Assembly: GCF_000145295.1 (NCBI RefSeq)
Contig: NC_014408.1
Location: 1,200,001 to 1,232,000, forward strand
Origin: Methanothermobacter marburgensis str. Marburg
GTDB lineage: Archaea > Methanobacteriota > Methanobacteria > Methanobacteriales > Methanothermobacteraceae
DNA length: 32,000 nt
Direction: 5' to 3'
Shown here one piece after another: positions 16,010 through 32,000 of this stretch. The stretch's first letter is position 1, and each line of letters starts with the position of its first letter. The notes under the pieces are model-generated. The model saw nothing but the letters and a program-made list of their open reading frames with translations, searched no databases and was not told the origin of the DNA. Both the position numbers and the translations under genes were made by a program.

Positions 16010-16048
16010 AACCTATTTAAGTTTTGTCATTTATATTCATGAAAGGTG

Positions 16049-16348: not shown

Positions 16349-16363
16349 GCTGGAAGGGAAACC

Positions 16364-17262: not shown

Positions 17263-17266
17263 TTTA

Positions 17267-20200
17267 TCACTGATACCTCTCAAATATTTTCATAAGATCT
17301 TCCTGTGCTTCATCGGCGATCTGCCTTCTTTTGGGCGCATCCTTCGGGAGGTTCCTCAGGAGGAAAACCCTTATGATTCTCATAACATTCCTCTTAACGC
17401 TCTCCTGGGACGTCCATCCAGGGAATATGTTCCCATCAACCTCCTCTGTAAGGGCAACAGCATATTCCTTCAGTTTATCCTCTGGTATACCTCTACCCCT
17501 GAGGGTCATCAGGACCGCGAACTCCTTCTCGTCAAGACCGAGCTCCTTCATTCTGCGCTCCTCCTTCCAGATCTCTCTTATGATGGCAGCGCCCTCCCTG
17601 TAGAGTTCCTCGTAGTCCATGGTTTTCTCCCTCCACTGTTCCAGGAGGCGTTCAACCTTTTCAGCCACCGATTCATAGATGGGGTTCCTTGTGCCATTCC
17701 TGAGGACATATGAGTTGAGTGTGTAGACTGTTAAGGCAGCCTTATCCCTTATATCCCTGACCTTCCTGAGGTTTTCAAAGTAATCGGAGTCAAATTCTAT
17801 TACCGGGAGTTTACTTTCTATTTCCCTGAACTCTGTGGTCCTGTGGATGTATTTGAGGGTTTTCTGGTAATACCTTTCAGTTTCGGCTTCAACTGATGGT
17901 TTCCTTGATACGACTCTCTGATAGTATGTGTAGATGACCGTGAGCCACCTGTAATCCTTGAGGCCATGCCTTATGAAGGGCTGGTCAGAGAGCAGCTCGA
18001 AGAGCCTTCTGAGTTCACGGTAATTCTCTGTGAATTTCTTTTCGAGTTCTTCATCAGAGGTTATGAGTTCAACCGCGTCGGAGAGGACCTCAATATCCAT
18101 CCCATCCCATTCAAGGTCGCTGAAGATCCTGAGGGTCTCCCTGAGTAGCTCCTCGTATTCCCTCTTCATGGATTCCATATCGTATACTGCGCCCTCATAC
18201 TCCTCCTTACTGTAGAGCTCAAATGCGCGCCTCAGTTCCGCCCCCATGACTCCAATGTAATCTATTATGAGGCCTGCCTCCTTGACGTCCCTGTAGGGTC
18301 TGTTTGTTCTTGCAACTGCCTGCAGCAGTCTGTGTTCCTTCAGTGGCTTGTCGAGGTACATGGTCTGGAGTATGGGTGCGTCGAATCCTGTGAGGAGCAT
18401 ATCCGTCACTATGAGTATCCGGGGGTTCCTATCAGGGTCCCTGAACCTTTCCAGTACCAGGTTTTTAATCTCATGGTGGTTCCTGCCATGGTATTTATCC
18501 ATGAGTTCCTCATCATAGGCCCTTATTATCTCCTCGTCCCGTGGAGTGTAGGTCATTACGATCTCAGAGTACTCTGGTGGGAGGTGCCTGTCGAGTTCCC
18601 TCTTGTAGAGGACGCATGCCCTTCTGCTTGGAGCCACAACCATGGCCTTGAATCTTCCATCGATGTTCTCTTTGAAGTGTTTCGCGATGTCCTCTGCTAT
18701 TAGCTCTATCCTGCGAGGGTTCTCGAGGATGGTTTTTATGGTGTCCAGTTTCCTTTTAACAGATTCCTCAACGTCCTTCCTTATGGATTCTGGCAGTTCC
18801 TCGAATTCCACACCGATGAATGCCTCCAGGTGCTTCCTGTCAAGGTGGACGTCACCTGCGAGTCTCGGCTGATAGGTTATCTTCACGGTGAAGCCGTCCC
18901 TTATGGAGTCTGTTATGAAGTACTGGTGGATGTATTTCTCTTCGGGGGGGTATGCGAACCTATCATAGGTGTCGCGTTCCCTCTTTGATATGGGTGTTCC
19001 TGTGAAGCCGAAGAAGAACGCTGATCTCAGCATGTCCTTCATCTGGGCTGCCAGGAGGCCATACTGACTCCTGTGGGCCTCATCAATGAAGACTATGACG
19101 TTCTTCCTGTCCATTATGGTTTCTCCTCCATGTTCCCTGAGTTCGGCTGTTATATCATCAAGTTTGTCTGTGAATTTCTGTATGAGTGTTATGAATAGGC
19201 CCCTCTTTCCCCGGTAGTCATCGCTGGCTATTGTTCTCTTTAATTCTGCTATGGATTCTATTCTTTCAGGCTGGTGGATTTCCAGTGCCGCGAGTTCTGC
19301 GTATAACTGTTCCTCAAGTTCTCTGCGGTCCACTATGAAGAATACTGTTGGGTTCTCCAGTTCCTTCATCCTGTAGAGTTTACTGGCCGCGAATATCATT
19401 GTCAGGGTTTTGCCTGATCCCTGCCAGTGCCATATGAGGCCCCTGTTCCTTTTATCTTCTCCCCTGATGTTCCTAAGGACCCTTTCAACTATCCTCTCAG
19501 CTGCATGGTACTGCATGTGCCTTGCTATGACCTTGGTTGTTGATCCGAACTCTGTCCTTATGTAGATGTAGTTCCTGATGAAGTCGAGCACCCTTTCTGG
19601 TCTGAGGAGTGGGAGTATATCTGCGGCCGGGAGTCCTGTGTGGTGCTCATGGCCCTGTTTTCTGGATTTTTGAGGGAGTTTACCATCCGTCTCCCTCCAC
19701 TCGAAGGTGGGGACCTCATCAAGCCAGGGAACTATCGGGAAGTACCTTGCAAAGTCTTCAGCAGCGACACCCATCTGTACGTACTTGTAGAGTTCCGGCA
19801 CTGTCTTCTCATAGTCCTTTATCTGCCGGTAGGCGTCCGCCCATGTCTCTGACATCCCCACGGGGTTTTTGAGTTCTATGTTCACGAGGGGGATGCCGTT
19901 GATGAAGAGCATTATGTCTGTCCTTATGGTCTGGTCACCACGACGGAATACGACCTGCCTTGATGCTGTGAATGAGTTGTGGCTTGGGGTATCGTGGTCA
20001 AGGATTTTGACCTTCCTGGGTTCCCCTGTTGTGGCAGATTTTATGTAAACGCCATTTTTAAGGTATTCAAGTATCGATTTGCATCCCTCAATGCTTGCTG
20101 CTTTACCCCGGAGCTCTTGGATGACCTGCTGTATATCATCATCCTCTATATACTGGTTGATCCTTCTTATGGAGTCTATCAGCTCAGATTCTATGAGGGG

Positions 20201-20308
20201 GTTTTCAGGGTCATCCCTCCCAAGTTCGGCGGCCGGTATATCATTCCAGCCCATTCCCCTCAGTTCCTTCATGAAGTAGTCTTCAAGGGCCTCCTCATTT
20301 AATTTCAT
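17267..20308 (-). CDS. hsdR: type I restriction enzyme, R subunit
   Basis: 1013 aa. PD-(D/E)xK-like DIMLFINGIPLVNIELK, helicase motif I WQGSGKTLTM, motif II DEAHRSQ, and a long helical C-terminal region. Confidence 0.95.
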   Translation of the reverse strand: MKLNEEALEDYFMKELRGMGWNDIPAAELGRDDPENPLIESELIDSIRRINQYIEDDDIQQVIQELRGKAASIEGCKSILEYLKNGVYIKSATTGEPRKVKILDHDTPSHNSFTASRQVVFRRGDQTIRTDIMLFINGIPLVNIELKNPVGMSETWADAYRQIKDYEKTVPELYKYVQMGVAAEDFARYFPIVPWLDEVPTFEWRETDGKLPQKSRKQGHEHHTGLPAADILPLLRPERVLDFIRNYIYIRTEFGSTTKVIARHMQYHAAERIVERVLRNIRGEDKRNRGLIWHWQGSGKTLTMIFAASKLYRMKELENPTVFFIVDRRELEEQLYAELAALEIHQPERIESIAELKRTIASDDYRGKRGLFITLIQKFTDKLDDITAELREHGGETIMDRKNVIVFIDEAHRSQYGLLAAQMKDMLRSAFFFGFTGTPISKRERDTYDRFAYPPEEKYIHQYFITDSIRDGFTVKITYQPRLAGDVHLDRKHLEAFIGVEFEELPESIRKDVEESVKRKLDTIKTILENPRRIELIAEDIAKHFKENIDGRFKAMVVAPSRRACVLYKRELDRHLPPEYSEIVMTYTPRDEEIIRAYDEELMDKYHGRNHHEIKNLVLERFRDPDRNPRILIVTDMLLTGFDAPILQTMYLDKPLKEHRLLQAVARTNRPYRDVKEAGLIIDYIGVMGAELRRAFELYSKEEYEGAVYDMESMKREYEELLRETLRIFSDLEWDGMDIEVLSDAVELITSDEELEKKFTENYRELRRLFELLSDQPFIRHGLKDYRWLTVIYTYYQRVVSRKPSVEAETERYYQKTLKYIHRTTEFREIESKLPVIEFDSDYFENLRKVRDIRDKAALTVYTLNSYVLRNGTRNPIYESVAEKVERLLEQWREKTMDYEELYREGAAIIREIWKEERRMKELGLDEKEFAVLMTLRGRGIPEDKLKEYAVALTEEVDGNIFPGWTSQESVKRNVMRIIRVFLLRNLPKDAPKRRQIADEAQEDLMKIFERYQ

Positions 20309-20322
20309 GTTCTATCCCCCCC

Positions 20323-21495
20323 CTATGATGTTATTCTGACCCTCCTTTTACCTGTCAGGAGGTCGTTCATGAGCCCCCTCTTTATGTTTTCAAGTTTAAC
20401 CTTCCTCTCCGTGAGGAGCTCGAGCCTTCTGTCCACATCCTGGAGTATCTCTGAAATCCTTTTCTGCTCCTCAAGAGGGGGAAGAGGGACTTTAAAGTTA
20501 TTGATGAATGTTTGAGTTATAATAGGGTGAGTTGTCTTTGTTGCAAATCTTTTAAGATCTTTAAATTTAATTAAATAAAACATGAAATGCACATTGACAC
20601 GCTTTGAATCATAGGATTCAGTATAAATAGCATTATCACTGACCCAAACACATCCTTTTGAGAGGTGGACCTCGCCAGAGGATCCCACTCTCCCAAATAT
20701 CAGTGCCTTATCCTTAGTTTTCAAATAATTGGAAGTTAATCCCATTTTTCCATTAGCACCATATATTGGTATTTCTCCCTCATTCAAAACAGGGGGCCTT
20801 TTTCCATTTTTAAAAGTGAATAAATCACCTAACTTAACAACATCCCAATCCACAGGAATCCTGCCAACAGGGGAATCCTTAAATTCCGTATGGTTGATGC
20901 CCTCCATCAGAAGCCTCTGCATGAGACCCCTCTTAAGTTTCTCTGTAACCCCTATCTCCTTATTAACCTTCTCTATCGCACCATCAACATCCTGGAGTAT
21001 CTCTGAAATCCTTTTCTGCTCCTCAAGAGGAGGAAGAGCCATCCTAAATTTACTAATTGCTTTCCACGATGTCCTTGGATGGTTAGTTCCTGAAGTCGTA
21101 GATACTGCTCTTTGAATAAATTGATTTGTATGAATAAAATAGATAAGAAATTCAGGAATTATCCTATCGGAGGGTGTTAAGACTATTAAATCCGTTGAAC
21201 AAATTCCATTTATATCCGCTAATACTGCTTTATCGAGATACGGTCTCAGTTTACCATATAAAATATCTCCAGTGTAAAATCTGTACTTTGTACTGCGGAT
21301 ACCTTCATCAGACACATATTCACAAAGTTTAGTTTCTCCAGATCTTATATGTTCTAACCCAACAAAATTATTTTTACCTTCCCCCGCGGGTTGAATGGAC
21401 TCTCTTCTCTGATCCACAACCTCACCCAAACTGACAACATCCCAATCCACAGGAATCCTGCCAACAGGAGAATCCTTGAATTCCACAGTATTCAC
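20323..21495 (-). CDS. hsdS: type I restriction enzyme, S (specificity) subunit with two TRDs
   Basis: Internal duplication of EFKDSPVGRIPVDWDVV and LPPLEEQKRISEILQDVD flanks two dissimilar AT-rich target-recognition domains. ATGA overlap with hsdM. Confidence 0.9.
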   Translation of the reverse strand: MNTVEFKDSPVGRIPVDWDVVSLGEVVDQRRESIQPAGEGKNNFVGLEHIRSGETKLCEYVSDEGIRSTKYRFYTGDILYGKLRPYLDKAVLADINGICSTDLIVLTPSDRIIPEFLIYFIHTNQFIQRAVSTTSGTNHPRTSWKAISKFRMALPPLEEQKRISEILQDVDGAIEKVNKEIGVTEKLKRGLMQRLLMEGINHTEFKDSPVGRIPVDWDVVKLGDLFTFKNGKRPPVLNEGEIPIYGANGKMGLTSNYLKTKDKALIFGRVGSSGEVHLSKGCVWVSDNAIYTESYDSKRVNVHFMFYLIKFKDLKRFATKTTHPIITQTFINNFKVPLPPLEEQKRISEILQDVDRRLELLTERKVKLENIKRGLMNDLLTGKRRVRITS

Positions 21496-23264
21496 ATTTT
21501 CACCCCCATATACCCAAGTTCATCCAGGTAACCCCTTATCCTCTCATCAACTTCAGCGAGTTCCTCCTCGATCTCTGAGAGGCGCATCCACTCACCCGCC
21601 ACATCAATATCCTCGAGCTCCTCCTCAGGGAATGCGTAGAGGGGCACGTTCAGATTATAATCATTCTCACGGATCTCATCAAGGTCAACAACCCTTGAGA
21701 ATCCATCATCATCCTGGAACTCCCTGTAGGCCTCAAGTATCCTCTCAATGTTCCCATCAGATAGGATGTTCAGCTTCCTGACCTCAGGGTGCTTCTCATA
21801 CTCCTCACCTGCATTGATGAAGAGGACCTTACCCCTCCTTTCCTCATCCTTATCCTTGTTGAGGATTATTATTGCCCCCGGGGCACCTGTATTGTAGAAT
21901 AATTTTTCAGGGAGAAGTATAACCGCCTCTATGAGGTCGTCCTCCAGTACAGCTGACCTTATACTCTTCTCACGGCCACCCCTGAAGAGGCAACCATTAT
22001 CTATAACCACACCTATCCTCCCGTCATCCTTGGCAGAGGCTATCATGTGCTGTATCCATGCCCAGTCAGCGGACTGCTTGTTCACAAATCCGTACCTGAA
22101 TCTCTCCCTCCAGTAATCCCCCTTCTTGAGGGTGTCCTCACCGTAACCATCCTGGTTCCATGGTGGGTTGGCTATCACTACGTCGAACCTCATGATCCCG
22201 TCTGATTCCTTGAATTTGGGGTAGAGGAGTGTGTCACCATGGGCTATGTGGTGATCCTTTATGTCATGTATGTACATGTTCATTGATCCTAAGGCCATTG
22301 TCTTCCTGTTGACCTCCTGTCCGTAGAGGAAGAGCCTTTCGGCCTCACCATAGGTCTCCTTAACGTACTTGTGGGATATTATGAGCATACCATTGGACGC
22401 TGATGCCGGGTCGTAGACGCTTTCGCCGGGTTTTGGGTCGAGTATCTCGACCAGTAGCCTTATAACCTCCCTGGGTGTGTAGACCTCGCCCTCCTTGGCC
22501 TTGGTTGGGGCGAAGTATCTCAGTATCCATTCATAGGCGTCTCCAAGGATGTCGGGGTCAACGTTTGTGAGTTTCTTCTCACTGAATAGTTCAACGAGCT
22601 GCCTGAGTATCTCCCGGTTCTCCTGACTCTGTGTGAACTCCACGAAGTCAAAGGCGTCCACCACGTCCTTGAAGGCAGGGTTGAGTTCTGCGAGGTTCTT
22701 GAGGGCCCCTGCAAATTTTATGGGCAGGTTCTCAACGTCCTTCCTTATGTTGTCCCACAGGTAATCCTCCTTTATGTCAAGGTCATGGTATGCACTGTTA
22801 CGTGCCTCAAGCCTCGCCTCCTCCTCACTGAGGCCATACTCCTTTATGGCATCCTCGTATGCCTTCTGGTACTCCATCATCCACTTGTCACTCATCTGTT
22901 TCATGAACAGGAGGACCAGGATGAACTTGTAGTCGACCCTTGTCCTTATGAGGTCTGCTGCCCCCTTGAGTATCCTCTCTATGTCTGCACGGCCAAGTTT
23001 ATCGTCCTTGAGGGTGAGGTAATCCTGTATGATCTCTGATTTGGGTCTGAGCATGTAGATACTTCTTCTCTCATCAGCGGGATCCTTTCTTGTCTCTATC
23101 CACCCCTTCTTCCTCATCTCGGATATTGCAGCTGAAAGGGACTTTTCATCAATTAGATGTTCCTTTCCAAGTATTTCAAGGGCCTCAGTGCTCCTGAATT
23201 CCCGGTCCTCAAATTTATCCCAGAGGAGGTCATATTTTTCTTCAAGCCATTTTGGTAGTTTCAT
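21492..23264 (-). CDS. hsdM: type I restriction enzyme, M subunit (N6-adenine methyltransferase) with N-terminal winged-helix extension
   Basis: Motif IV NPPW (VIANPPWNQ), motif I region DPASASNGML, and an HsdM_N-like LIRTRVDYKFILVLLFMKQMSD. It also has ~90 extra N-terminal residues with a MarR-like wing (RKDPADERRSIYMLRP). Confidence 0.95.
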   Translation of the reverse strand: MKLPKWLEEKYDLLWDKFEDREFRSTEALEILGKEHLIDEKSLSAAISEMRKKGWIETRKDPADERRSIYMLRPKSEIIQDYLTLKDDKLGRADIERILKGAADLIRTRVDYKFILVLLFMKQMSDKWMMEYQKAYEDAIKEYGLSEEEARLEARNSAYHDLDIKEDYLWDNIRKDVENLPIKFAGALKNLAELNPAFKDVVDAFDFVEFTQSQENREILRQLVELFSEKKLTNVDPDILGDAYEWILRYFAPTKAKEGEVYTPREVIRLLVEILDPKPGESVYDPASASNGMLIISHKYVKETYGEAERLFLYGQEVNRKTMALGSMNMYIHDIKDHHIAHGDTLLYPKFKESDGIMRFDVVIANPPWNQDGYGEDTLKKGDYWRERFRYGFVNKQSADWAWIQHMIASAKDDGRIGVVIDNGCLFRGGREKSIRSAVLEDDLIEAVILLPEKLFYNTGAPGAIIILNKDKDEERRGKVLFINAGEEYEKHPEVRKLNILSDGNIERILEAYREFQDDDGFSRVVDLDEIRENDYNLNVPLYAFPEEELEDIDVAGEWMRLSEIEEELAEVDERIRGYLDELGYMGVKM

Positions 23265-23316
23265 ATTATCACCTTCAGTTAAGGTGGCAGTCCTGCCTGC
23301 AATGATCCATGTCCAG

Positions 23317-23351
23317 ATTATACAAGCTAATTAACTTACTACTTGTATAAT
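23317..23351. promoter_or_regulatory. 10-bp perfect inverted repeat attatacaag-N15-cttgtataat in the hsdM/ppcA divergent promoter region
   Basis: Arms at 23317-23326 and 23342-23351. The right arm abuts TATA-like ataatttataac. Confidence 0.5.
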
Positions 23352-23494
23352 TTATAACTTTTAATATAAATATCTTTGTGCGGTATGGTGCTGTAAACCA
23401 ATTACATAGCATGTCATTTCAAGGTCCAGGTTCATTATCCTCATCATCATCCTTATATTCCAGTCCACAGAAATATCACCCCGGAGTGTTAAAC

Positions 23495-24946
23495 ATGAAG
23501 GTTCCAAGATGCATGAGTACACAGCATCCAGACAACGTTAACCCGCCGTTCTTTGCAGAAGAACCTGAACTGGGTGGTGAAGACGAGATAAGGGAGGCAT
23601 ACTACGTCTTCTCACACCTGGGATGTGACGAACAGATGTGGGACTGCGAGGGCAAGGAAGTGGACAACTACGTTGTAAAGAAACTCCTCACAAAGTACCA
23701 GGCCTTCTTCAGGGACCATGTCCTGGGTGAGGATCTGAGGCTCACCCTCAGGGTGCCCAACCCCACAGTTGAGAGGGCCGAGGCAAAGATACTCCTTGAG
23801 ACCCTTGAGAGCATACCCAGATCCTATGACACCGCAAGCCTCTTCTACGGGATGGACGCAGCCCCGGTCTTCGAGGTCATCCTCCCCATGACCTCATCAA
23901 GCAGCTGCCTCAACCGGATCCACAGCTACTACCTGGACTTTGTGAAGGGTAAGGAGAGGCTGCAGCTCGCAGATGGTGTGACCGTCAAGGAGTGGATAGG
24001 TGAATTCCGGCCCGACGAGATCAACGTTATCCCCCTCTTCGAGGACCATGAGGGGATGCTGAACGCCGCCAAGATCACAGGCGAGTACCTTGATGGTAAG
24101 GATATCCCGGAGCAGAGGGTCTTCCTTGCAAGGTCAGACCCTGCCATGAACTACGGTATGATATCAGCCACACTCCTCAACAGGATAGCCCTCTCAGACT
24201 TCCGGGACCTTGAGGAAGAGTCAGGAGTTAAACTCTACCCAATAATAGGTATGGGCTCAGCTCCCTTCAGGGGTAACCTCCGCCCCGATAATGTGGAGGA
24301 CGTTACCGGGGAGTACCGTGGCGCCTACACCTTCACTGTCCAGTCATCCTTCAAGTACGACCATGAACCATCAGATGTCATCAGGGGCATAAAGGAACTA
24401 AGGTCTGTTAAACCTGGCAGGGCAGCTGAAATCGAGCGTGAAGGTGTCCTGGAGATACTTTCAGCCTACTGCCGGGAGTACAGGAGGCAGGTCATGGACC
24501 TCGTGGACATCATAAACAGGGTTGCGAGGTACGTGCCCGGCAGGAGGAAGAGGAAGCTCCACATCGGACTCTTCGGATACTCAAGGAGCATGGGAAACGT
24601 TTCACTCCCAAGGGCAATAACCTTCACAGCGGCCCTCTACTCGCTGGGGGTTCCCCCGGAGCTGCTCGGGTTCAACGCGCTATCATCAGGTGACCTTGAA
24701 TTCATTGAGGAGGTCTACCCGGGTCTTGGAAGGGACCTCCATGACGCTGCAAGGTACGCCAACCCTGAATCACCATTCCTCAGCCCTGAGGTTAAATCCT
24801 CCTTTGAGGAGTACCTTGAACCTGAGTATGATGAGGGGCACATGAAGACCACAGAGGAGATCATAAGGGCCCTCAGAATCAACCGGACAGCCAACCTCCA
24901 GGAGCTCATCCTTGAGGCTGCAAGCCAGAGGAAGTTCCTCGGCTGA
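23495..24946 (+). CDS. ppcA: archaeal-type phosphoenolpyruvate carboxylase
   Basis: MKVPRCMSTQHPDNV...WDCEGKEVD is the conserved N-terminus of archaeal PEPC, first characterised from M. thermautotrophicus. ATG 23495 follows GGAGTG. The track start at GTG 23378 adds a Ser-rich non-homologous leader. Confidence 0.9.
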   Translation: MKVPRCMSTQHPDNVNPPFFAEEPELGGEDEIREAYYVFSHLGCDEQMWDCEGKEVDNYVVKKLLTKYQAFFRDHVLGEDLRLTLRVPNPTVERAEAKILLETLESIPRSYDTASLFYGMDAAPVFEVILPMTSSSSCLNRIHSYYLDFVKGKERLQLADGVTVKEWIGEFRPDEINVIPLFEDHEGMLNAAKITGEYLDGKDIPEQRVFLARSDPAMNYGMISATLLNRIALSDFRDLEEESGVKLYPIIGMGSAPFRGNLRPDNVEDVTGEYRGAYTFTVQSSFKYDHEPSDVIRGIKELRSVKPGRAAEIEREGVLEILSAYCREYRRQVMDLVDIINRVARYVPGRRKRKLHIGLFGYSRSMGNVSLPRAITFTAALYSLGVPPELLGFNALSSGDLEFIEEVYPGLGRDLHDAARYANPESPFLSPEVKSSFEEYLEPEYDEGHMKTTEEIIRALRINRTANLQELILEAASQRKFLG

Positions 24947-24958
24947 AAACCTCCACCA

Positions 24959-25001
24959 TTTTTGTGCTGAGCAGAGAGCTGCCCCCCATAAACTATTTTT
25001 T
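24959..25001 (+). terminator. two oligo-T tracts (T5 at 24959-24963, T6 at 24996-25001) after ppcA
   Basis: Archaeal terminators are oligo-T runs. The first lies 13 nt after the stop. Confidence 0.5.
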
Positions 25002-25195
25002 CTGTTCTGAAAGCATCCATACACATCCACTGTAAGACCATCCGGCCTTCCCACGGGTTCTGGCATCAGTCTACCCACTGTTCCTGACGGACCCGCTGAT
25101 ATAGAATTCTGGCATCACCATCCCCACCCTTCCTTACTGACCTGTTGATACATTAAAATAGCTCCACTGACATAACGATGATATGGGGGTGTTTT

Positions 25196-26020
25196 ATGGA
25201 CAACATTGAAAGAATTAAAATGATTGAGAAGTCCCCTATAAGTTTTGAGGGGCTGAGGAAGCTGAACATAGCGGCCGGGTCCCTGCACCTGATCCAGGGG
25301 CTTCTGATGGTTGCGCTGGGTTACCTGCTCACCTGGGACAGGGACATCTACACGTTTTACCTGAAGTTCAAGATACTCTCACTGAATCCGCCGTCATTCC
25401 AGGTCCTTCCCAGCCCTGAGGTGGCATTCACCGTGAGCTACCTCGGGGTGATCCTTGCATCCTTCCTCCTGATATCTGCGGTGGCCCACTTCACAATAGC
25501 CTTCCTCAGGAATGAGAGTTACGTTGAGAACCTGAAGAGGGGTATGAACCCCTACCGCTGGTACGAGTATGCTCTCTCAAGTTCAATAATGATAGTGATA
25601 CTGGCCACCTTCGTGGGGGTCTGGGACCTCTGGTCACTTGTGATGATCTTCGTCCTCAACGCATCGATGATAATGTTCGGCTACCTGATGGAGAAGATCA
25701 ACCAGTACACCGAGAAGATCGACTGGTCACCCTACCTACTGGGGTGCATCTCAGGCTTCACCCCATGGGTGGTCATTGCAGCCTACTTCATCGCCGCCCT
25801 GGGCTCCGCCGAGACACAGCCACCGGACTTCGTCTACCTCACACTGCTCATCTACTTTGTGATGTTCAACACATTCTCCGTCAACATGCTGCTGCAGTAC
25901 AGGGGTGTCGGTAAATGGAGGGACTACCTCTACGGTGAGAGGGTCTACATCATACTGAGCCTGGTTGCAAAGACCCTGCTGGCCTGGCTGGTGTTCATAG
26001 GGGTGTTCTCACCCTTCTAG
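25196..26020 (+). CDS. heliorhodopsin-family 7-TM protein
   Basis: Blocks HLIQ, AHF, NPYRWYEYALSSSIMIVILA, NASMIMFGYLMEK and GERVYIILSLVAKTLLAW match my recollection of heliorhodopsin 48C12 nearly residue for residue. ATG 25196 is 4 nt after GGGGGTG. The track start is ATG 25178. Confidence 0.8.
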   Translation: MDNIERIKMIEKSPISFEGLRKLNIAAGSLHLIQGLLMVALGYLLTWDRDIYTFYLKFKILSLNPPSFQVLPSPEVAFTVSYLGVILASFLLISAVAHFTIAFLRNESYVENLKRGMNPYRWYEYALSSSIMIVILATFVGVWDLWSLVMIFVLNASMIMFGYLMEKINQYTEKIDWSPYLLGCISGFTPWVVIAAYFIAALGSAETQPPDFVYLTLLIYFVMFNTFSVNMLLQYRGVGKWRDYLYGERVYIILSLVAKTLLAWLVFIGVFSPF

Positions 26021-26025
26021 TTCTA

Positions 26026-26043
26026 TTTTTTAACACCTTTTTT
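26026..26043 (+). terminator. two T6 tracts after the heliorhodopsin-like gene
   Basis: tttttt at 26026-26031 and at 26038-26043, 6-23 nt after the TAG. Confidence 0.5.
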
Positions 26044-26144
26044 ATGGAGGCATCCGGGGGTCAGCCACTCACTTTAAGAACCGCAAAGTATTTATAGGGG
26101 TTCCATGTAACCTTATCTTGTCGATATGAGCTCTTTTTAAGCAT

Positions 26145-26216
26145 AGTCCCGTGGGGTAATGGCAATCCTGATGGACTCTGGATCCATCGATAGCGGTTCG
26201 ACTCCGCTCGGGACTA
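26145..26216 (+). tRNA. tRNA-Gln (anticodon CUG)
   Basis: Hand-folded cloverleaf. Acceptor AGTCCCG/CGGGACT plus discriminator A. Anticodon arm ATGGA-CTCTGGA-TCCAT. T arm AGCGG-TTCGACT-CCGCT. No encoded CCA. Confidence 0.9.
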
Positions 26217-26284
26217 TCCCCCCATAACACCCCCCTTTTATCGAAACCTATTTATGAAGAACATCACCACCTAATAACTGTCAT

Positions 26285-26357
<73 letters not shown>

Positions 26358-26381
26358 CAAACCACTGATTCTGTGTCCAAA

Positions 26382-27506
26382 ATGGAGGAAATACTTGTAA
26401 TAGGCGTCAACACCCGACCTGTGGTTGAATCAGCCTTCAGGTTAGGGTACAGGGTCTACTCTGCAGGTTACTACTGCACAGCAGACTTCAAGCACTACAC
26501 CGAAAGAAGGTGCATACTGAGGGAGCGTAGCGGTGAAAGCTGCGGGAGATTCCATGAGAACTTCAGTCAGGAGAAGCTCCTTGAAGCAGCCTCAGATTTC
26601 ATAGAAAGGGCTGATGGTATAATCCCCCTCACAGGCGCACCCCCTCTCCCAGGGGAGAAGGTCCTCGGTAACTCCAGGGTTGATCACGTGGAGGACAAGT
26701 ACCGCCTCTACAGGAGGATCAGGAACTCATACCCCACACCCGAGACACACCTCATCAGTGACCCTGCCGAGGCGATGGAGATTGTAGCTGCAGGGGAGAA
26801 GAAATACATCGCAAAGCCGGTTTCCGGCGCTGGAGGCTTTGGTGTCACCGAGTTCCGCGAAGGTGATGGGGAGTTCCTCCTCCAGGAGTACATCGAGGGC
26901 GTCCCTGTGAGTGCCTCTGTTCTTTCAACCGGAGAGGATGCCATCACGGTTCTGACGAGCAGGCAGATCATCGACAGGGGCGTACCTGGATTTGAGGGGC
27001 AGTTCGTCTACGCCGGTAACATGACACCAGGGCCCTCAGGGGAGATTGAGGATCTTGCCAGTGACCTCATACTTGACCTCTCCCTGCGCGGATCCAACGG
27101 CGTCGACCTCATAATGAGGGACTCCGAGCTGTATGTCATAGAGGTCAATCCCAGGATACAGGGGACCTTTGAGTGTGCTGAAGCCTCCCTGGGAATAAAC
27201 ATGGTGGATGCCCATATCAGGGCATGCATGGGCGAGCTTATAGAAAAACCGGACCCGGTCAGTTATGCTGTTAAGAGGATACTCTATGCCCCGGCAAGGT
27301 GCCGGGTGGGTGAGATAAAAACCATGGGGGTCCATGACCTTCCTGTCCCGGGAACCATAATTGAGGAGGGTGAACCCCTGCTGACCGTCCTGGCCTCCCA
27401 TAACTCCATGGAGGCCGCTGAGAACCTTGCATCAAACATCTGCTCCAGGGTCAAGAAAGAACTCCATTACCTCCGATGCCCCCCACCTCGACCACAGGGA
27501 GTATGA
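26382..27506 (+). CDS. ATP-grasp superfamily enzyme (COG2232-like predicted carboligase)
   Basis: About 374 aa. The N-terminal pre-ATP-grasp region is ILVIGVNTRPVVESAFRLGY. The central part (KYIAKPVSGAGGFGV...LLQEYIEG.PVSASV...NGVDLI...YVIEVNPR) fits the ATP-grasp fold. GTG 26373 is the alternative start. Confidence 0.75.
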   Translation: MEEILVIGVNTRPVVESAFRLGYRVYSAGYYCTADFKHYTERRCILRERSGESCGRFHENFSQEKLLEAASDFIERADGIIPLTGAPPLPGEKVLGNSRVDHVEDKYRLYRRIRNSYPTPETHLISDPAEAMEIVAAGEKKYIAKPVSGAGGFGVTEFREGDGEFLLQEYIEGVPVSASVLSTGEDAITVLTSRQIIDRGVPGFEGQFVYAGNMTPGPSGEIEDLASDLILDLSLRGSNGVDLIMRDSELYVIEVNPRIQGTFECAEASLGINMVDAHIRACMGELIEKPDPVSYAVKRILYAPARCRVGEIKTMGVHDLPVPGTIIEEGEPLLTVLASHNSMEAAENLASNICSRVKKELHYLRCPPPRPQGV

Positions 27507-27545
27507 GAATATATTGTCAAGAAAGAACTCCATTACCTCCGATGC
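27450..27545. repeat. 30-bp perfect direct repeat, period 66 bp, spanning the ATP-grasp stop codon
   Basis: gtcaagaaagaactccattacctccgatgc occurs at 27450-27479 and 27516-27545. Confidence 0.95.
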
Positions 27546-27866
27546 TGAGAACCTTCTGCTCCATTAAAGAACCCTACTTTAAGGGGACAAACTGCATATC
27601 CTAGGGTTAAGAAGAAGGTGGATTTAAGATACCTCTGGAGCAGATCCTTAAGGTATCTGCCATGAAATTTGCAGCTGCTTATCCGGCTCTTGCAGTGCCC
27701 ATACTGTTCAATGTCTCTTATATCCTGTCTTTTTGCAGTGTCCATGTACTCTCCAGTGCCCATTTTCCCCTGATATGATCATCTCAGGTAACTGGATCTG
27801 GTGTCCTGCATTCAGAACCCCGTCCATGGATATCCTCCGATAACATGAATCACCGCGGGACAGGCA

Positions 27867-28016
27867 TCAGATTATGCCAAGCAGTAGGAGTATCAGTATT
27901 ATGGTACCTATCGTTATGAGCACCGTGCTCAGAATCATGCCACCTGTCATTAAAAGGAAAAGTTTGGCCCTCCTATCAGGGTCCTTAAGGTACTCCTTAA
28001 GCGGATCCCTGCTCAT
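27867..28016 (-). CDS. unlisted small membrane protein, 49 aa (MSRDPLKEYLKDPDRRAKLFLLMTGGMILSTVLITIGTIILILLLLGII)
   Basis: Hand translation. GGAGGT (28029-28024) directly follows the stop of the upstream DUF61 gene and lies 7 nt before ATG 28016. One C-terminal TM. Confidence 0.5.
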   Translation of the reverse strand: MSRDPLKEYLKDPDRRAKLFLLMTGGMILSTVLITIGTIILILLLLGII

Positions 28017-28029
28017 TCCATCAACCTCC

Positions 28030-28437
28030 TTAGAGCTCCCTCACAAGGAACATGTACTGTGTAACCGTTGGAAACCTCGCCCTCAGCACCCTCATCTCAG
28101 GTCTGTAGATGTAGATCTCATCACCCTCATCATCCCTCTCAAGGACCTCCGAGACCACCTTCACCTCAATATCACCGGCGATCCTTGCACCTGAGGTCTC
28201 AGATTCTATCTCAATGTATATCGGGAGCCTCAGCCTCCTTGCCTCATCCTCAGTCAGCATCCCCCTGAGGTCTTCAAGTTCAGCCCATTTGAACCTGTGC
28301 CTGGTGCCATCAGCCCCTGTAACATGGGGCCTGTCCTCCCTGAGGAGCTCCTCCAGGGTCTTCCTCCTTGAGGGGAGATGACGGTTGAGGTTAAAGATCT
28401 CCTTCTTCATCAGCATGTCTGATCTGTCACCTCTCAT
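28030..28437 (-). CDS. UPF0216 / DUF61 family protein
   Basis: LNRHLPSRRKTLEELL...P.V...DG..H.F...EL...RLRLPIYIEI...RARFPTVTQYMF matches the archaeal UPF0216 pattern as I recall it. The start could instead be a downstream ATG (28416 or 28410). Confidence 0.65.
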   Translation of the reverse strand: MRGDRSDMLMKKEIFNLNRHLPSRRKTLEELLREDRPHVTGADGTRHRFKWAELEDLRGMLTEDEARRLRLPIYIEIESETSGARIAGDIEVKVVSEVLERDDEGDEIYIYRPEMRVLRARFPTVTQYMFLVREL

Positions 28438-28495
28438 CCTATTAGGCTATGTTTTATATTCTATAAAACATTAATATCTTAGTGGAGGGTGTACC

Positions 28496-28828
28496 TTGGA
28501 TATCGATATCGAGCAGTGCCGGGAAAATGATAAGATAAAGGAGATAATAAGCGGCAGCGGACTCCCCATAAAGTATATAAAACTTCTTTTAAGGCTCTCG
28601 GACGGGATATACATAAACGGCGTCAACTACAATGTGAAGATAGAAGATGACATGGTCTCAGTCATCCTCATATCCTCCAAGCCCGAGAACAGGACAGGGG
28701 TTTTCAGGACAGGGGCCCTCACCAACATATTCTACCGTGTACGTGAAATGGAAAAGGAGCATGAGGAGATAAAGACCGAGACCCGGGCCAGTGGTAACCT
28801 CATAGAGTTAAGGATACATCTCCAGTAG
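28496..28828 (+). CDS. hypothetical protein, 110 aa
   Basis: TTG start 4 nt after GGAGGGTG. AT-rich TATA-like region 28451-28469 upstream. No recognisable family. Confidence 0.5.
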   Translation: MDIDIEQCRENDKIKEIISGSGLPIKYIKLLLRLSDGIYINGVNYNVKIEDDMVSVILISSKPENRTGVFRTGALTNIFYRVREMEKEHEEIKTETRASGNLIELRIHLQ

Positions 28829-28840
28829 GGGTGATGGTTG

Positions 28841-29263
28841 ATGGATCCTGAGGACTATCACAGGATTCTCACCGAACTTGCAGATTTCCGGGACCTTGAC
28901 ACGTCCACGATAGCCTCCCTAAGGAGTTCCCTGGTGGAACTGAAGGATAGAAGGGACCAGCTCCTTGAGATCAGAACGAACCTGAAGAGGGATATCAGGG
29001 GCGTTGAGAGATACTACCTTGAGTGGATGGCCGAGGTAAGGAATGATGTTGAGGAGCTGAGGGAGGGCTCATCAAGACTCAGAAGGATCATTTCAGGTAA
29101 CCCCGCCACTGCCCAGGCCAGGGCCATGAAACAGCTGAAGATGAACCGTGAAGCACTGGTGGAAACCTACCGGGACCTCCTGGAGTACACAGAGGAACTC
29201 ACCGAGCACATTGAGGACCTGATGATTGAACTCTATGAGGAAATGAAAGGCTTCCTGGGATAA
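28841..29263 (+). CDS. hypothetical coiled-coil protein, 140 aa
   Basis: ATG 28841 follows AGGGGTGA. Heptad-like E/R/L-rich sequence throughout. Starts 13 nt after the preceding ORF. Confidence 0.55.
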   Translation: MDPEDYHRILTELADFRDLDTSTIASLRSSLVELKDRRDQLLEIRTNLKRDIRGVERYYLEWMAEVRNDVEELREGSSRLRRIISGNPATAQARAMKQLKMNREALVETYRDLLEYTEELTEHIEDLMIELYEEMKGFLG

Positions 29264-29480
29264 ACCATTTCTGGAAGAAAGGCCTCAGGATTCATGGGAC
29301 TCCATCCAGAGAATGGAATTATCTGCACGGCCCAGTATACGAATGGTACGTTTAATACGACGAAATCTATTCCCTATGCCGAATCCGGATAAGTGTAGTG
29401 AAGTGAGAGAAAATCAGGGGTCACTCATCACATAAAACATTCTCTGAGCGTTGGAACTGGAGCAACTTTAAAAATAAATA

Positions 29481-29864
29481 TTAGTGGGTTAATTCAACCG
29501 GTAGAATTATGAGGACACCCAGGAGGTCGTTCCTGCTGATTTTCCCGTCTGCAGCAGCTACGAAGGTTGCATGGTCTGCCTTACGGTCCATGCTTATGGG
29601 TAGGGGTGTCTCCTCCCCTGCAGCTATCGGATGACCCAGGGGGTTCGTGGCGTAGGCACACATGAAGACTATGTGGTTTGCCGGTATACTGACCTCCTTG
29701 ATCTTAACCGGCTTTGCTTCGCCGGCCCTGACCTCAACGTCCTCGTCTGCAATGATGGCCCTGAGGTTCCCGTAGACCTCACCCATCCTGAAGTCCACGA
29801 GTTCCCTCCTGTATTTCTCCTCGGCCTCGCGGACCTGGCCGAACCTTGTGAGTATCCTAACCAT
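29481..29864 (-). CDS. hypothetical protein, 127 aa, translationally coupled to atpD
   Basis: Its ATG overlaps the atpD TGA by one base (TGATG). No recognisable family by eye. Confidence 0.6.
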   Translation of the reverse strand: MVRILTRFGQVREAEEKYRRELVDFRMGEVYGNLRAIIADEDVEVRAGEAKPVKIKEVSIPANHIVFMCAYATNPLGHPIAAGEETPLPISMDRKADHATFVAAADGKISRNDLLGVLIILPVELTH

Positions 29865-30505
29865 CACTCCATCTCCATGGATTTTTTGATCATCTTCAAC
29901 CTGACGAAGTTCTCCCTCTCCATCTCCTCGAGCCTCATCTCAATGTACTTGACGGTGTTCTTGAGCCTCGGGATTATGATGTGTTCGAGGGCGTTAACCC
30001 TTCGCTTGGTTGATTCTATCTCACCGGCGAGGAGCCTTATGGTCTTCTCGATCTCACCGAGTTCTATTATGAGTGCCAGGGACTCCTCGAATTTTCTGGC
30101 TGCCTCGTCGAGTTTTACTGATGTGTCCACAAGGCCGTATCCACGTTCAACCACGGTCCTCTGGGTTGCCCGGGCATCGACCACCGGTACAACGACACCC
30201 ATTATACTCCTTGAGTCTATGTCGACCTCCACGGACTCCCTCACAGACATTGCAGCCCTCTCAACTGCAGTGTCGCCCATGAGTACCTGGGCCTCTGTGA
30301 GGTCAGAGAAGGCCTCCTTGAGGTGCTCCTCCACCTTTTCACGGGAACCCTTAACCCTCTCAAGGATGTTGAAGAACTCCATGATAAGGGCGTTCCTCTT
30401 CTCCTTGAGGAGACTGTAACCCTTGACAGCGAGTTTCTCACGCTGCTTGAGTTTCAGGAGCTCCATCCTTGTGGGGTTGATCCCCTCAATCATTTCCTGT
30501 GCCAT
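29864..30505 (-). CDS. atpD: A1Ao (V-type) ATP synthase subunit D
   Basis: [44 protein letters not shown] is the typical N-terminus of A/V-type subunit D. It follows atpB. Confidence 0.9.
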
Positions 30506-30540
30506 TGGCTAACTCTCCTGAAAAAGGATGTTGGGGGTGG

Positions 30541-31932
30541 TTATTCGGCACCCGGGAGGTACTTGGGTATGTGCTCCTCGCGGACCCTCTTGAGTTCGGA
30601 CCTCGGGAGGAGTGATAGCAGTTCCCATCCGAGGTTGAGGGTCTCCTCTATGGAGCGGTCCTCGTCACGTGCCTGGGTGATGAAGCGTTTCTCAAATTCA
30701 TCAGCGAATTTGAGGAACTTGCGGTCCCTCTCTGTGAGGGCCTCCTCACCCACAACCGCCATGAGGTCCCTGAGGTCACGTCCCTCGGCGTAGGCACTGT
30801 ATAGCTGGTCTGAGACACCGCTGTGGTCCTCACGTGTCCTTCCCTCACCGATACCACCACTCATGAGCCTGGATAGTGATGGGAGCACGTCCACCGGTGG
30901 GTATATACCCTTACGGTGGAGGTCACGGCTCAGCACTATCTGGCCCTCGGTGATGTAACCTGTCAGGTCAGGTATGGGGTGTGTGATGTCGTCCTGTGGC
31001 ATCACCAGTATGGGCATCTGTGTGATTGACCCCTCCTTGCCGACTATACGCCCTGCCCTCTCATAGAGGCTTGCAAGGTCGGTGTACATGTACCCCGGGT
31101 AACCCCTTCGTCCTGGGACCTCCTCCCTTGCAGCTGAGATCTCCCTTAGGGCCTCACAGTAGTTTGTGAGGTCGGTGAGTATGACCAGGACGTGCATGTC
31201 GTGCTCGAAGGCAAAGTACTCTGCTGTTGTGAGGGCCATCCTCGGGGTGATGATACGCTCAATGGCAGGGTCGTCTGCCAGGTTCATGAAGACCGTAACA
31301 CGCTCAAGGGCCCCTGTCCTCTCGAAGTCCCTCATGAAGTAGTTTGCCTCTTCGTGGGTGATACCCATGGCCGCGAAGATAACCGCGAATTCGCTCTCCT
31401 CTGCAAGCACCTTGGCCTGCCTTGCGATCTGGGCTGCCAGTTCGTTGTGTGGAAGCCCTGAACCTGAGAATATAGGCAGCTTCTGACCCCTCACCAGGGT
31501 GTTCATCCCGTCAATGGTTGATATACCGGTCTGTATGAACTCGGCAGGGAACTCCCTTGCAGCGGGGTTCATGGGGCTACCGTTGATGTCGAGCTCCTTC
31601 TCGGGTATGATCTCAGGGCCACCGTCTATGGGTTTACCTGTACCGTCGAATATTCGGCCCATCATGTCCAGGGATACGCCGATCTTCGCTGTTTCACCTG
31701 TGAACCTTATCTTTGTTGTCTCTGTGTTGAGGTCACTGGTACCCTCAAAGACCTGTACGACTGCAAGGTCCTCCCTGACTTCCAGTACCTGTCCCCTTCT
31801 CTTCTCACCTGTGGGTGTTTCAATCTCCACTATCTCACTGTAGGCAACCCCTTCAACACCCTCAACGATCATTAAAGGACCTGAGACCTCTGTGACGGTG
31901 GTGTATTCACGGGTTTTGATGTTAACGTTCAT
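30541..31932 (-). CDS. atpB: A1Ao (V-type) ATP synthase subunit B
   Basis: [40 protein letters not shown] and [29 protein letters not shown] are typical of the non-catalytic B subunit. ATG 31932 is preferred; the track start is GTG 31938. Confidence 0.95.
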
Positions 31933-31934
31933 CT

Positions 31935-32000
31935 TCACACCTCACTACATTCCTTGACGATCCTTTCCCGGATCTCCTTGATCCTTGCAGGGAATTCCTC
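31935..32000 (-). CDS. atpA: 3' end (last 21 codons) of the A1Ao ATP synthase subunit A gene
   Basis: Open frame [21 protein letters not shown] ends 2 nt before the atpB ATG. The assignment rests on the conserved A-B-D gene order only. Confidence 0.55.

Follow-up and report, generated by a model that had tools for sequence, protein, structure and literature searches.

A Thermophilic Methanogen, Methanothermobacter, Encodes an Intact, Highly Conserved Heliorhodopsin

The + strand of a 32,000-nucleotide stretch of the Methanothermobacter marburgensis str. Marburg genome (contig NC_014408.1, positions 1,200,001 to 1,232,000; hereafter the window) encodes, at 25196–26020, a true heliorhodopsin (HeR), a member of a family of retinal-binding light receptors; the gene is intact and strongly conserved, and its host is a thermophilic methanogen. 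The original prediction, made from the letters of the window, was supported as to the heliorhodopsin, the methanogen host, the apparently separate transcription unit, and the lack of a retinal gene in the window. It went too far in presenting the gene as unexpected and as a sign of something unrecognized: RefSeq and UniProt already list the protein under this name, and the surprise fails because HeRs have been published from Methanobacteria, from other strict anaerobes, and from genomes without retinal synthesis. The gene adds little as a discovery, and HeR-only genomes as a rule have no complete retinal pathway, which occurs in 1 of 381 of them; the standard explanation is the capture of exogenous retinal.

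Identity of the Gene and Its Coding Sequence

25196..26020, + strand: coding sequence of the HeR, 274 aa and a stop codon (PF18761, NF038020, identical recorded protein)

The open reading frame spans 25178 or 25196 to 26020. The profile search that had been suggested as a check on the family assignment gave matches far above the cutoffs: the 274-aa translation hits Pfam PF18761 with E = 1.9e-95 and 319 bits (cutoff 26.7) over model positions 1–241 of 242, and the NCBIfam equivalog NF038020, "heliorhodopsin HeR", with 349 bits (cutoff 100) over positions 1–244 of 244. The Pfam scan of this translation returned no second family at E ≤ 0.01. The closest solved structures are those of TaHeR (6is6, E = 1e-57) and 48C12 (6su3, E = 4e-48), at 41–43% identity. 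The strings of 48C12 that the original prediction had quoted (HLLQ, FHF, NIFRWVEYSLSSSVMIVLIA, NASMILFGWLQEK, and GERAYIVLSLVAKSALAW) all occur in the PDB sequence of 48C12, where they align to the blocks of the query.

With regard to the start of the protein, ATG 25196 and the N-terminal MDN are kept across genera. Two other starts were considered and set aside. A 280-aa form beginning at ATG 25178 is absent from recorded assemblies and unconserved in the related locus L001, so that 25196 is preferred; a 266-aa form beginning at Met9, given by RefSeq for one genome, would lose residues 1–8, which are conserved across genera.

An identical protein is recorded at NCBI as "MULTISPECIES: heliorhodopsin HeR [Methanothermobacter]" (ADL58918.1 and BAZ98975.1), and its presence in Methanothermobacter genomes bears out the hydrogenotrophic methanogen that had been proposed as the host. 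The M. thermautotrophicus Delta H ortholog (UniProt O27027, AAB85442.1) falls in the same 90% cluster as the query. Accession arithmetic from a proteome supplement, in which AAB85443.1 is MTH947, suggests that the Delta H HeR locus is MTH946. The Delta H HeR, a membrane protein, is not among the rows listed in the temperature-proteome supplements, and the flanking hsdM and ATP-grasp products are present there. In the phylogeny of Bulzu et al. (2021), the HeRs of class Methanobacteria fall in cluster C10 with those of Bathyarchaeia; the query is a member of this cluster, with no sequence-level difference from it. A search for heliorhodopsin together with Methanothermobacter found no paper in the literature collection covered, and the protein appears to be annotated, yet unstudied.

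The Retinal Site

The key positions, assigned by alignment, are the following.

25286..25288, + strand: His31 (codon CAC), equivalent to 48C12 His23, Schiff-base cavity
25487..25489, + strand: His98 (codon CAC), equivalent to 48C12 His80, Schiff-base cavity
25565..25567, + strand: Glu124 (codon GAG), Schiff-base counterion position (48C12 E107, TaHeR E108)
25970..25972, + strand: Lys259 (codon AAG), retinal Schiff-base lysine position (48C12 K241, helix G)

The Lys of SLVAK and the Glu of RWYEY, which had been taken for the Schiff-base lysine and its counterion, are K259 and E124 of this list, and E124 also aligns with the site of the E108D substitution in the TaHeR entry 7clj. Together with the cavity and pocket residues they make up the intact retinal-binding signature that had been claimed. 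For a wider comparison, 37 distinct positions of 48C12 were mapped, namely the functional residues named in PMC7049168 and the color-tuning positions of PMC7807009. Thirty of them are identical in the query, including all Schiff-base, cavity, barrier, and pocket residues except Q213, which is replaced by M231; Met at this position is a frequent variant according to PMC7049168. The six remaining substitutions fall in the surface polar clusters, in the AB loop, at the fenestration, and at the color-tuning position Q148.

Among the conserved residues are the counterion-stabilizing serines S94, S128, and S255, identical to 48C12 Ser76, Ser111, and Ser237 (with a single helix-C Glu and no Asp pair). 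The same is true of the cavity, where eight of eight residues agree (48C12 His23, His80, Asn101, Tyr108, Asn16, Glu230, Arg104, and Tyr92), and of the Leu barrier, with all three leucines retained (residue list from PMC7049168). The pocket of the query comprises Asn155, Trp191, Phe224, Met158, Ile159, Trp122, and Tyr125.

The Lys, the Glu counterion, and the pocket residues are invariant in all 86 relatives compared (86/86), which come from four archaeal lineages, except at two variable fenestration positions. Such invariance is expected only under selection for chromophore binding, and it disfavors the other role that the original prediction had offered, that of a retinal-independent HeR fold serving as a chromophore-free membrane scaffold, transporter, or sensor in a host that never obtains retinal. 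In favor of this role are the hosts, which are strictly anaerobic and often come from dark digesters, the strong constraint that the gene nonetheless shows, and the lack of a retinal pathway gene in the window, where, as had been stated, no carotenoid or retinal Pfam family occurs among the genes. Against it, in addition to the invariant site, is the normal retinal binding by HeRs of other strict anaerobes: those cloned from Thermococcus, Mesotoga, and Dehalogenimonas form normal retinal pigments with maxima of 530–539 nm. We consider a chromophore-free role quite unlikely.

The HeRs of these three anaerobes have tuning residues of the Met/Met/Ala type, as does the query. From its Met165/Met231/Ala258 pattern we infer a predicted absorption near 530–540 nm.

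One feature of the site points in a different direction. The residues lining the fenestration, F188 and F221, are both bulky. Because a lateral fenestration is the proposed route of retinal entry, they suggest a tight opening, and this counts against a model in which retinal is scavenged.

Fold and Topology

The AlphaFold2 model of the protein (pLDDT 80.5) has seven transmembrane helices and a β-hairpin in the AB loop, with strands at residues 49–63 and 66–80. When the model was compared by Foldseek, TM scores were 0.75–0.84 to 6is6, 6su3, and 6uh3 versus 0.49–0.61 (about 0.55) to type-1 rhodopsins; the modeled fold is that of a HeR, nearer to the solved HeRs than to type-1 rhodopsins. Identification as a type-1 microbial rhodopsin was rejected on other grounds as well: there is no such profile match, the query has Ser255 and Glu124 in place of Asp212 and Asp85, and identity is 10–16%.

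If the N-terminus is assumed to be inside, the predicted cytoplasmic loops carry 9 Lys and Arg residues and the outer loops 3. By the positive-inside rule only, an inverted topology with a cytoplasmic N-terminus is predicted.

Comparison with Known Heliorhodopsins

The best solved relative is TaHeR, from the Thermoplasmatales archaeon SG8-52-1 (6is6, 7u55, 7clj), with 43% identity and TM scores of 0.75/0.82. Both proteins are archaeal. Common to the two are the Schiff-base Lys with its Glu counterion, the pair of cavity histidines, a Met corresponding to Q213, and a Phe corresponding to F172 (F188 in the query). They differ in that the query has an N-terminus longer by 8 residues, a longer AB hairpin, and Phe221 where TaHeR has Ala200 in the lining of the lateral fenestration, which is probably tighter in the query for this reason. 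Their hosts differ as well, TaHeR belonging to an estuarine sediment archaeon and the query to a thermophilic methanogen.

The founding member of the family, the actinobacterial HeR-48C12 (6su3, 6su4, 6uh3), is 41% identical to the query, and the agreement at the mapped positions has been given above. The changes from 48C12 to the query include Q213 to M231 and Q148 to M165, which is the blue-shifted tuning pattern of PMC7807009, and, in the surface polar clusters, S242T, Q247L, and S201I. 48C12 represents subfamily 1, from aerobic bacteria of the photic zone.

With regard to way of life, a parallel is the HeR of Thermococcus sp. 2319x1, whose host is likewise an archaeal thermophile and strict anaerobe without an evident need of light. 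In this HeR both color-tuning positions hold Met, and the protein bound supplied retinal, with a maximum at 530 nm. It belongs to another cluster and has Ser where the query has Ala beside the Lys; this comparison was made from its description.

Retinal binding and a slow photocycle that pumps no ions have been established in 48C12, in TaHeR, and in 13 natural variants. Could the methanogen protein instead conserve energy as a light-driven ion (proton) transporter, like the viral V2HeR3? Proton transport is reported for some viral HeRs, and an operon for the A1Ao ATPase lies about 3.5 kb from the HeR gene. However, the residue set of the query is that of the nontransporting 48C12/TaHeR type, with a hydrophobic extracellular half, 48C12 itself translocates no ions, and the proximity of the ATPase operon is a genus-specific synteny. 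A transporting function would be very improbable.

Transcription Signals and Selection

Three candidate expression signals flank the coding sequence.

25152..25160, + strand: TATA-box-like ATTAAAATA, putative archaeal promoter for HeR (conserved upstream alignment)
25185..25191, + strand: Shine-Dalgarno-like GGGGGTG, 4 nt before the ATG (sequence; conserved in Methanothermobacter loci)
26026..26043, + strand: two T6 runs (26026–26031 and 26038–26043) after the stop, likely oligo-T termination signals

All Methanothermobacter loci have the TATA-like box, and in Methanobacteriaceae loci of 82% identity it takes the form GATTTAATA; the intergenic sequence on either side of it is unconserved. The box lies about 36–44 nt before the ATG, in agreement with archaeal promoter geometry. 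The GGGGGTG motif is presumably complementary to the 3′ end of 16S rRNA, one G-U pair included. Oligo-T tracts end archaeal transcription, and a scan for a hairpin terminator at the HeR gene found none. A combined search for bacterial sigma-70 promoters and hairpin terminators, which is inapplicable to an archaeon, gave chance-level matches only. The Shine-Dalgarno-like site and the T6 runs from which a monocistronic gene had been proposed are thus both seen, and the conserved TATA-like box is a further signal; from these elements, the HeR gene appears to be transcribed on its own.

Purifying selection on it is strong, with a dN/dS of 0.046–0.057 within Methanothermobacter. Identity to the copies in L001 is 94% for the HeR, versus 90% for the phosphoenolpyruvate carboxylase (PEPC), 87% for the DUF61 protein, and 76% for the ATP-grasp protein. 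This conservation above housekeeping neighbors, together with a dN/dS of about 0.05, indicates that the HeR gene clearly does something. Both observations stand against the idea that the gene was acquired horizontally and survives as a remnant without function, as do the frame, intact in every strain, and the conserved promoter box. Two points speak for an acquired gene. HeRs of the same cluster, 65–80% identical, are common to Methanobacteria, Bathyarchaeia, and Methanomethylicia, a distribution suggestive of horizontal transfer, and the GC3 of the HeR gene, 0.77, is above the 0.63–0.68 of its neighbors. That the gene is a remnant is nevertheless extremely improbable.

Neighborhood of the Gene

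The HeR gene stands between the following features.

23495..24946, + strand: archaeal-type PEPC, upstream neighbor (PF14010, E = 5.9e-205)
26144..26358, + strand: tandem tRNA-Gln(CUG) and tRNA-Gln(UUG), downstream (ARAGORN; Rfam tRNA, 58–59 bits)

A T5 run (24959–24963) and a T6 run (24996–25001) follow the PEPC gene, which bounds the HeR unit on its upstream side, and the tRNA-Gln pair separates the HeR from an ATP-grasp gene at 26373–27506. The methanogen neighbors named in the original prediction are all in place: FmdE/C/B, which together with Tfx occupy 1580–5095, the PEPC gene, and the A1Ao ATPase subunits downstream.

Since HeRs are documented to bind directly, and so to regulate, the products of adjoining genes (a glutamine synthetase, a photolyase, and an ABC transporter), the protein might be a light-dependent allosteric regulator of an enzyme next to it, either the PEPC upstream or the uncharacterized ATP-grasp ligase downstream. 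The gene order ppcA–HeR–(tRNA-Gln ×2)–ATP-grasp is indeed kept in nine of the nine Methanothermobacter loci examined. This synteny, however, is confined to a single genus and says little about a partner, and neither a PEPC nor this ATP-grasp gene occurs within 10 kb of the HeR in the other Methanobacteriaceae, Bathyarchaeia, or Methanomethylicia loci, for which reason both were rejected as general HeR partners. Nor do the genes appear to be cotranscribed: each is set apart by terminator runs or a promoter box, and two tRNA genes lie between. Such regulation of a neighbor would be unlikely. At the Methanothermobacter locus, no linked transducer or partner gene was found.

Among HeRs of the same cluster, peroxiredoxin and PAS-histidine-kinase genes recur beside the HeR.

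Relatives and the SOUL Neighbor

The relatives at 65–94% identity all belong to Methanobacteriaceae, Bathyarchaeia, Methanomethylicia, or Nitrososphaeria-related lineages. Transcripts of related Bathyarchaeota HeRs have been described in sediments.

Outside the present window, a divergently transcribed SOUL-family gene adjoins the HeR at 28 of some 70 related loci. This neighbor is missing at the Methanothermobacter HeR locus. Among SOUL homologs, the best 120 of 1138 are all from Methanobacterium, Methanobacteriaceae, or Methanomicrobiales. Our search found no published report of SOUL as a HeR partner. Another peculiarity, also limited to the relatives, is one Methanobacterium HeR clade in which both cavity histidines are replaced by leucine.

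A more speculative proposal may be added. The methanogen HeR could act as sensor in a photoprotection circuit not yet described, working with a SOUL partner in the majority of Methanobacteriaceae and in some Bathyarchaeia, a linkage lost in Methanothermobacter. Light reported by a retinal-scavenging HeR would then signal imminent O2 and photosensitized damage to cells rich in F420, corrinoids, and F430, and the SOUL-family ligand-binding protein may act as a carrier of tetrapyrroles or chromophores, or as a transducer. We regard this circuit as conceivable but doubtful.

A Probable Light Sensor

What would a strict anaerobe do with a light receptor? The best explanation, and on balance a probable one, is a HeR with scavenged retinal and a slow photocycle that serves as a light sensor or regulator through a partner. 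The apoprotein would bind all-trans retinal of outside origin, taken from neighboring organisms; the cell itself would make none, because the formation of retinal from carotene requires O2 and the pathway is generally absent from HeR-only genomes. The photocycle would be slow and nonpumping, as in other HeRs, and the cytoplasmic face would modulate a partner protein. Light would in this way warn a strict anaerobe rich in photosensitizing cofactors of surface exposure, photodamage, and O2, and would lead to protective responses. Methanogens, M. thermoautotrophicum included, are reportedly sensitive to light. Against the sensor reading is the fact that Methanothermobacter is usually grown in the dark and without retinal, conditions under which the gene is not needed.

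Outlook

The role of HeRs in strict anaerobes is the question for which Methanothermobacter has practical value. It is among the few HeR hosts that are easily mass-cultured, biochemically well known, and now reportedly open to targeted gene deletion. The SOUL–HeR pair and the His-to-Leu clade of the relatives offer concrete leads on HeR function, and, should the photoprotection circuit prove true, Methanothermobacter would be a minimal, culturable, and genetically tractable system in which to find the signaling target of a HeR.

Identity of the Gene

The open reading frame at 25196-26020 of the forward strand encodes a heliorhodopsin (HeR), and the original prediction to that effect is confirmed far beyond chance. 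Its position was exact, with 274 aa encoded from ATG 25196. The Pfam Heliorhodopsin profile (PF18761) matches the product end to end (E=1.9e-95, 319 bits, cutoff 26.7), and the NCBIfam equivalog NF038020, "heliorhodopsin HeR", is matched at 349 bits (cutoff 100). Among solved structures the top matches are TaHeR, from Thermoplasmatales archaeon SG8-52-1 (6is6, E=1e-57), and 48C12, the founding actinobacterial member (6su3, E=4e-48). All five 48C12 strings given in the original prediction occur in the PDB sequence of 48C12, aligned to the blocks quoted from the query. The codon proposed for the Schiff-base lysine (25970-25972, AAG) specifies K259, aligned to 48C12 K241; the one proposed for the counterion glutamate (25565-25567, GAG) specifies E124, which aligns to 48C12 E107 and also to the residue altered in the TaHeR E108D entry 7clj.

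NCBI names the protein "MULTISPECIES: heliorhodopsin HeR [Methanothermobacter]", under accessions that include ADL58918.1, which we take to be the M. marburgensis Marburg protein. Many metagenomes contain the identical 274-aa sequence, as do the complete Methanothermobacter chromosomes AP018336.1, CP064337.1 and CP194219.1. The M. thermautotrophicus Delta H ortholog, AAB85442.1 (UniProt O27027), falls within the same 90% cluster; it was labeled "unknown" in 1997 and is today "Heliorhodopsin HeR" in UniRef. Public start calls differ, giving 279 aa (1997 Delta H record), 274 aa (most records) or 266 aa from Met9 (one RefSeq record). The relevant elements are as follows:

25152-25160: TATA-like box ATTAAAATA, conserved; GATTTAATA in 82%-identical Methanobacteriaceae loci
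25185-25191: SD-like GGGGGTG, conserved upstream of the HeR ATG 25196
25178, 25196, 25220: alternative HeR ATG start codons

The conserved MDN N-terminus, the SD-like site and the spacing from the TATA box favor the start at 25196.

Chromophore Site, Fold and Topology

Thirty-seven distinct 48C12 positions were mapped onto the query, mostly residues listed as important by Kovalev et al. (PMC7049168), the rest being the color-tuning positions of PMC7807009; 30 of the 37 are identical. These include the whole Schiff-base group (48C12 K, E, S237, S111 and S76), eight polar residues of the Schiff-base cavity, both histidines (H31, H98) among them, the three barrier leucines, and the retinal-pocket residues N155, S129, S130, W191, M158, I159, F224, W122, Y125, F90 and M132. 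The sole pocket difference, Q213 to M231, is a frequent HeR variant (PMC7049168). The other six lie in surface polar clusters (S242T, Q247L, S201I), the AB loop (P40K), the fenestration (I170F) and a color-tuning position (Q148M). The resulting tuning residues, M165/M231/A258, form a combination that goes with HeRs absorbing below 540 nm (PMC7807009).

An AlphaFold2 model of the query (pLDDT 80.5) has seven helices and an AB-loop beta-hairpin, and is closest to TaHeR and 48C12 (TM 0.75-0.84, vs about 0.55 for type-1 rhodopsins). With the N-terminus placed inside, there are 9 Lys+Arg in the cytoplasmic loops against 3 in the outer ones, which fits the inverted HeR topology, as predicted. At the level of sequence and model, family membership, a complete chromophore site, the fold and the predicted topology are established.

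Does the protein need retinal at all? A retinal-independent role for the fold had been offered as an alternative. However, the Lys, the Glu and the pocket residues, except two fenestration positions, are invariant in 86/86 HeR sequences, which argues strongly against it, and we consider an apoprotein function unlikely. Both fenestration positions are bulky in the query (F188, F221), a mild point against easy retinal uptake. The residue at the F188 position (codon 25757-25759; HeR loci of relatives L032-L080) borders the lateral fenestration through which retinal is proposed to enter; methanogen HeRs have Phe there, and 33 of 39 Bathyarchaeia HeRs have Gly.

Selection and Transcription

Within Methanothermobacter, HeR dN/dS is 0.046 against the copy L001 (94% aa identity) and 0.057 against the copy L087 (97%), and that the gene is decaying seems extremely improbable. 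Between the Methanothermobacter lineages no other protein of the neighborhood is as conserved as HeR: its identity to L001 is 94%, followed by PEPC (90%), DUF61 (87%), a 110-aa ORF (83%), the ATP-grasp protein (76%) and a 141-aa ORF (67%). Its GC3 (0.77) lies above that of ppcA, the upstream PEPC gene (0.68), and of the downstream ATP-grasp gene (0.63).

The intergenic sequence upstream of HeR is poorly conserved except for the TATA-like box, GGGGGTG and ATG 25196, and such spacing is consistent with an archaeal TATA promoter followed by a short leader. T5 and T6 runs of its own close ppcA, and two T6 runs lie after HeR, ahead of two tRNA-Gln genes:

26144-26219 and 26284-26358: tandem tRNA-Gln genes (anticodons CTG, TTG), directly after HeR
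26373-27506, + strand: ATP-grasp_3 protein gene (Delta H ortholog MTH947; homolog of MJ0776)

These conserved upstream elements and separate T runs support, in archaeal terms, the earlier reading of a monocistronic gene with its own signals; a bacterial promoter/terminator scan of the region was uninformative. On sequence grounds, HeR appears as an independent transcription unit under selection. Among the entries listed in one Delta H proteome supplement, the accession of HeR, a very hydrophobic protein, is absent and both flanking proteins are present.

A TTTATA-like box lies at about 26091-26096, ahead of the first tRNA-Gln gene. Integration events often target tRNA genes, and HeR is located beside these two in Methanothermobacter only.

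Genomic Surroundings

The gene context described in the original prediction is real: the window holds Tfx with FmdE/C/B, archaeal PEPC and A1Ao ATPase subunits, together with a molybdate-type ABC transporter and a polyferredoxin, and most neighbor genes are 100% identical to CP064337.1. G+C steps near position 12000, from about 0.37-0.45 (1-12000) to about 0.49-0.55 (12000-32000); the low-GC part carries tfx, fmdECB, the Mo-type ABC transporter, the polyferredoxin and an exonuclease-family gene. A second dip (0.42-0.44 at 20001-22000) covers hsdS and the start of hsdM, within the following system:

17267-23264, - strand: complete type I restriction-modification system (hsdR, hsdS, hsdM), between a YgjP-like gene and ppcA

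In L087, a relative at 97% identity, the same slot (L087:3438-7994) holds a 1518-aa CobN/Mg-chelatase-like gene and a 40-aa PEPC fragment, and the specificity subunit has 384, 390 or 407 aa depending on the strain, so the region just upstream of ppcA-HeR is variable.

Could HeR regulate PEPC or the ATP-grasp enzyme between which it lies? The order ppcA-HeR-tRNA-ATP-grasp is restricted to Methanothermobacter and is weak evidence of a functional link, which leaves such regulation rather unlikely. The ATP-grasp_3 protein, whose ortholog was detected in a published Delta H proteome, is an uncharacterized ligase: no NCBIfam equivalog was matched, the best being MfnD at 46 bits (cutoff 400).

Relatives and Their Neighborhoods

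A scan with one genome per species found 414 HeR relatives. Methanobacteriaceae, Bathyarchaeia and Methanomethylicia/Methanosuratincola, with a small number of Nitrososphaeria-related bins, account for the best 80 of the 414 (65-94% identity). An NJ tree places the Methanothermobacter HeRs within Methanobacteriaceae, near a few Bathyarchaeia and the Methanomethylicia, which implies cross-phylum transfer within anoxic habitats. One HeR of this archaeal cluster (L029, 72% identical, grouping with a Bathyarchaeia sequence) sits on a 2,381-bp contig binned as Candidatus Sumerlaeota, and probably reflects misbinning, not a bacterial member of the cluster.

Genes for peroxiredoxin, PNPOx-like proteins, alpha/beta hydrolases, PAS histidine kinases and a radical-SAM/SPASM protein recur beside HeR at other loci, in agreement with published oxidative-stress and signaling ideas on HeRs. 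In relatives, a divergent gene upstream of HeR encodes a SOUL-family "heme-binding" protein (PF04832, E=3.7e-48), at 76-485 bp in most carrying loci and 1,256 bp in L004:

L002:9110-9760, - strand: SOUL gene, example locus, beside HeR at L002:10001-10822
Further SOUL-HeR loci: L003-L006, L012, L018-L023, L026, L027, L030, L031, L033, L035, L036, L038, L039, L049, L057, L058, L061, L067, L070, L079

The neighbor occurs in 20/32 non-Methanothermobacter Methanobacteria loci and 8/37 Bathyarchaeia loci, in 0/9 Methanothermobacter loci and nowhere in the window; independent gene calls confirm the pair in two further loci, L089 and L090. Pairwise identities of SOUL and HeR co-vary (r=0.86; Mantel test 0/2000), as shared phylogeny alone could yield. 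No report of this pairing was found in the literature searched.

In 19 Methanobacterium HeRs both cavity histidines (48C12 H23, H80) are replaced by Leu:

Window codons 25286-25288 and 25487-25489, Leu/Leu at the corresponding positions: L011, L013 (M. oryzae), L015, L022, L025-L028, L030, L031, L033-L036, L038, L039, L042, L045, L047

The two positions always change together (HH or LL, with no mixed cases), and the LL sequences form a separate clade. The MAG PtaB.Bin024 has both types (L017 HH, L035 LL); the window HeR is of the HH type.

Proposed Mechanism and Outlook

The identity given in the original prediction stood; its novelty and the "unexpected" framing did not, since the protein is already annotated as HeR and HeRs of anaerobes and Methanobacteria are published. 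HeR in Methanothermobacter is, in short, already known. Cluster C10 groups HeRs of class Methanobacteria with Bathyarchaeia, and the HeRs of clusters C8-C10 stem largely from strict or facultative anaerobes of sediments and sludge (Bulzu et al. preprint, 10.1101/2021.02.01.429150). HeRs cloned from three strict anaerobes, Thermococcus sp. 2319x1, Mesotoga and Dehalogenimonas, formed normal pigments that absorb maximally at 530-539 nm (PMC7807009). In situ transcription has been published for Bathyarchaeota HeRs, which are 65-79% identical to the query. Nor are methanogens indifferent to light. Olson et al. ("Light sensitivity of methanogenic archaebacteria", 1991) reportedly found M. thermoautotrophicum inhibited by blue light, and Kiener et al. 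(1989) are said to have characterized its DNA photolyase.

How, then, might the protein work? Cleavage of carotenoids to retinal requires O2. Because of this, and because the pathway is generally missing from HeR-only genomes (complete in only 1/381; Bulzu et al., 10.1101/2021.02.01.429150), HeR would bind all-trans retinal obtained outside the cell; exogenous capture by HeRs is a proposal credited to Shihoya et al. in the same preprint. The pigment would absorb near 530-540 nm, with a photocycle that, by analogy with 48C12 and TaHeR, may be slow and non-pumping; a function as a proton transporter is very unlikely. The cytoplasmic face would act on a partner, as in other HeRs, for which glutamine synthetase, photolyase and an ABC transporter have been shown, and the preferred physiological role would be that of a sensor warning of the O2 and photodamage that come with light. 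Taken as a whole, we consider this mechanism, warning sensor included, reasonably probable.

No mention of heliorhodopsin together with Methanothermobacter was found in the literature searched, so this HeR seems annotated but unstudied. A strongly constrained HeR in a culturable, genetically tractable methanogen is of modest interest, and such a host would allow what HeRs do in anaerobes to be tested directly.
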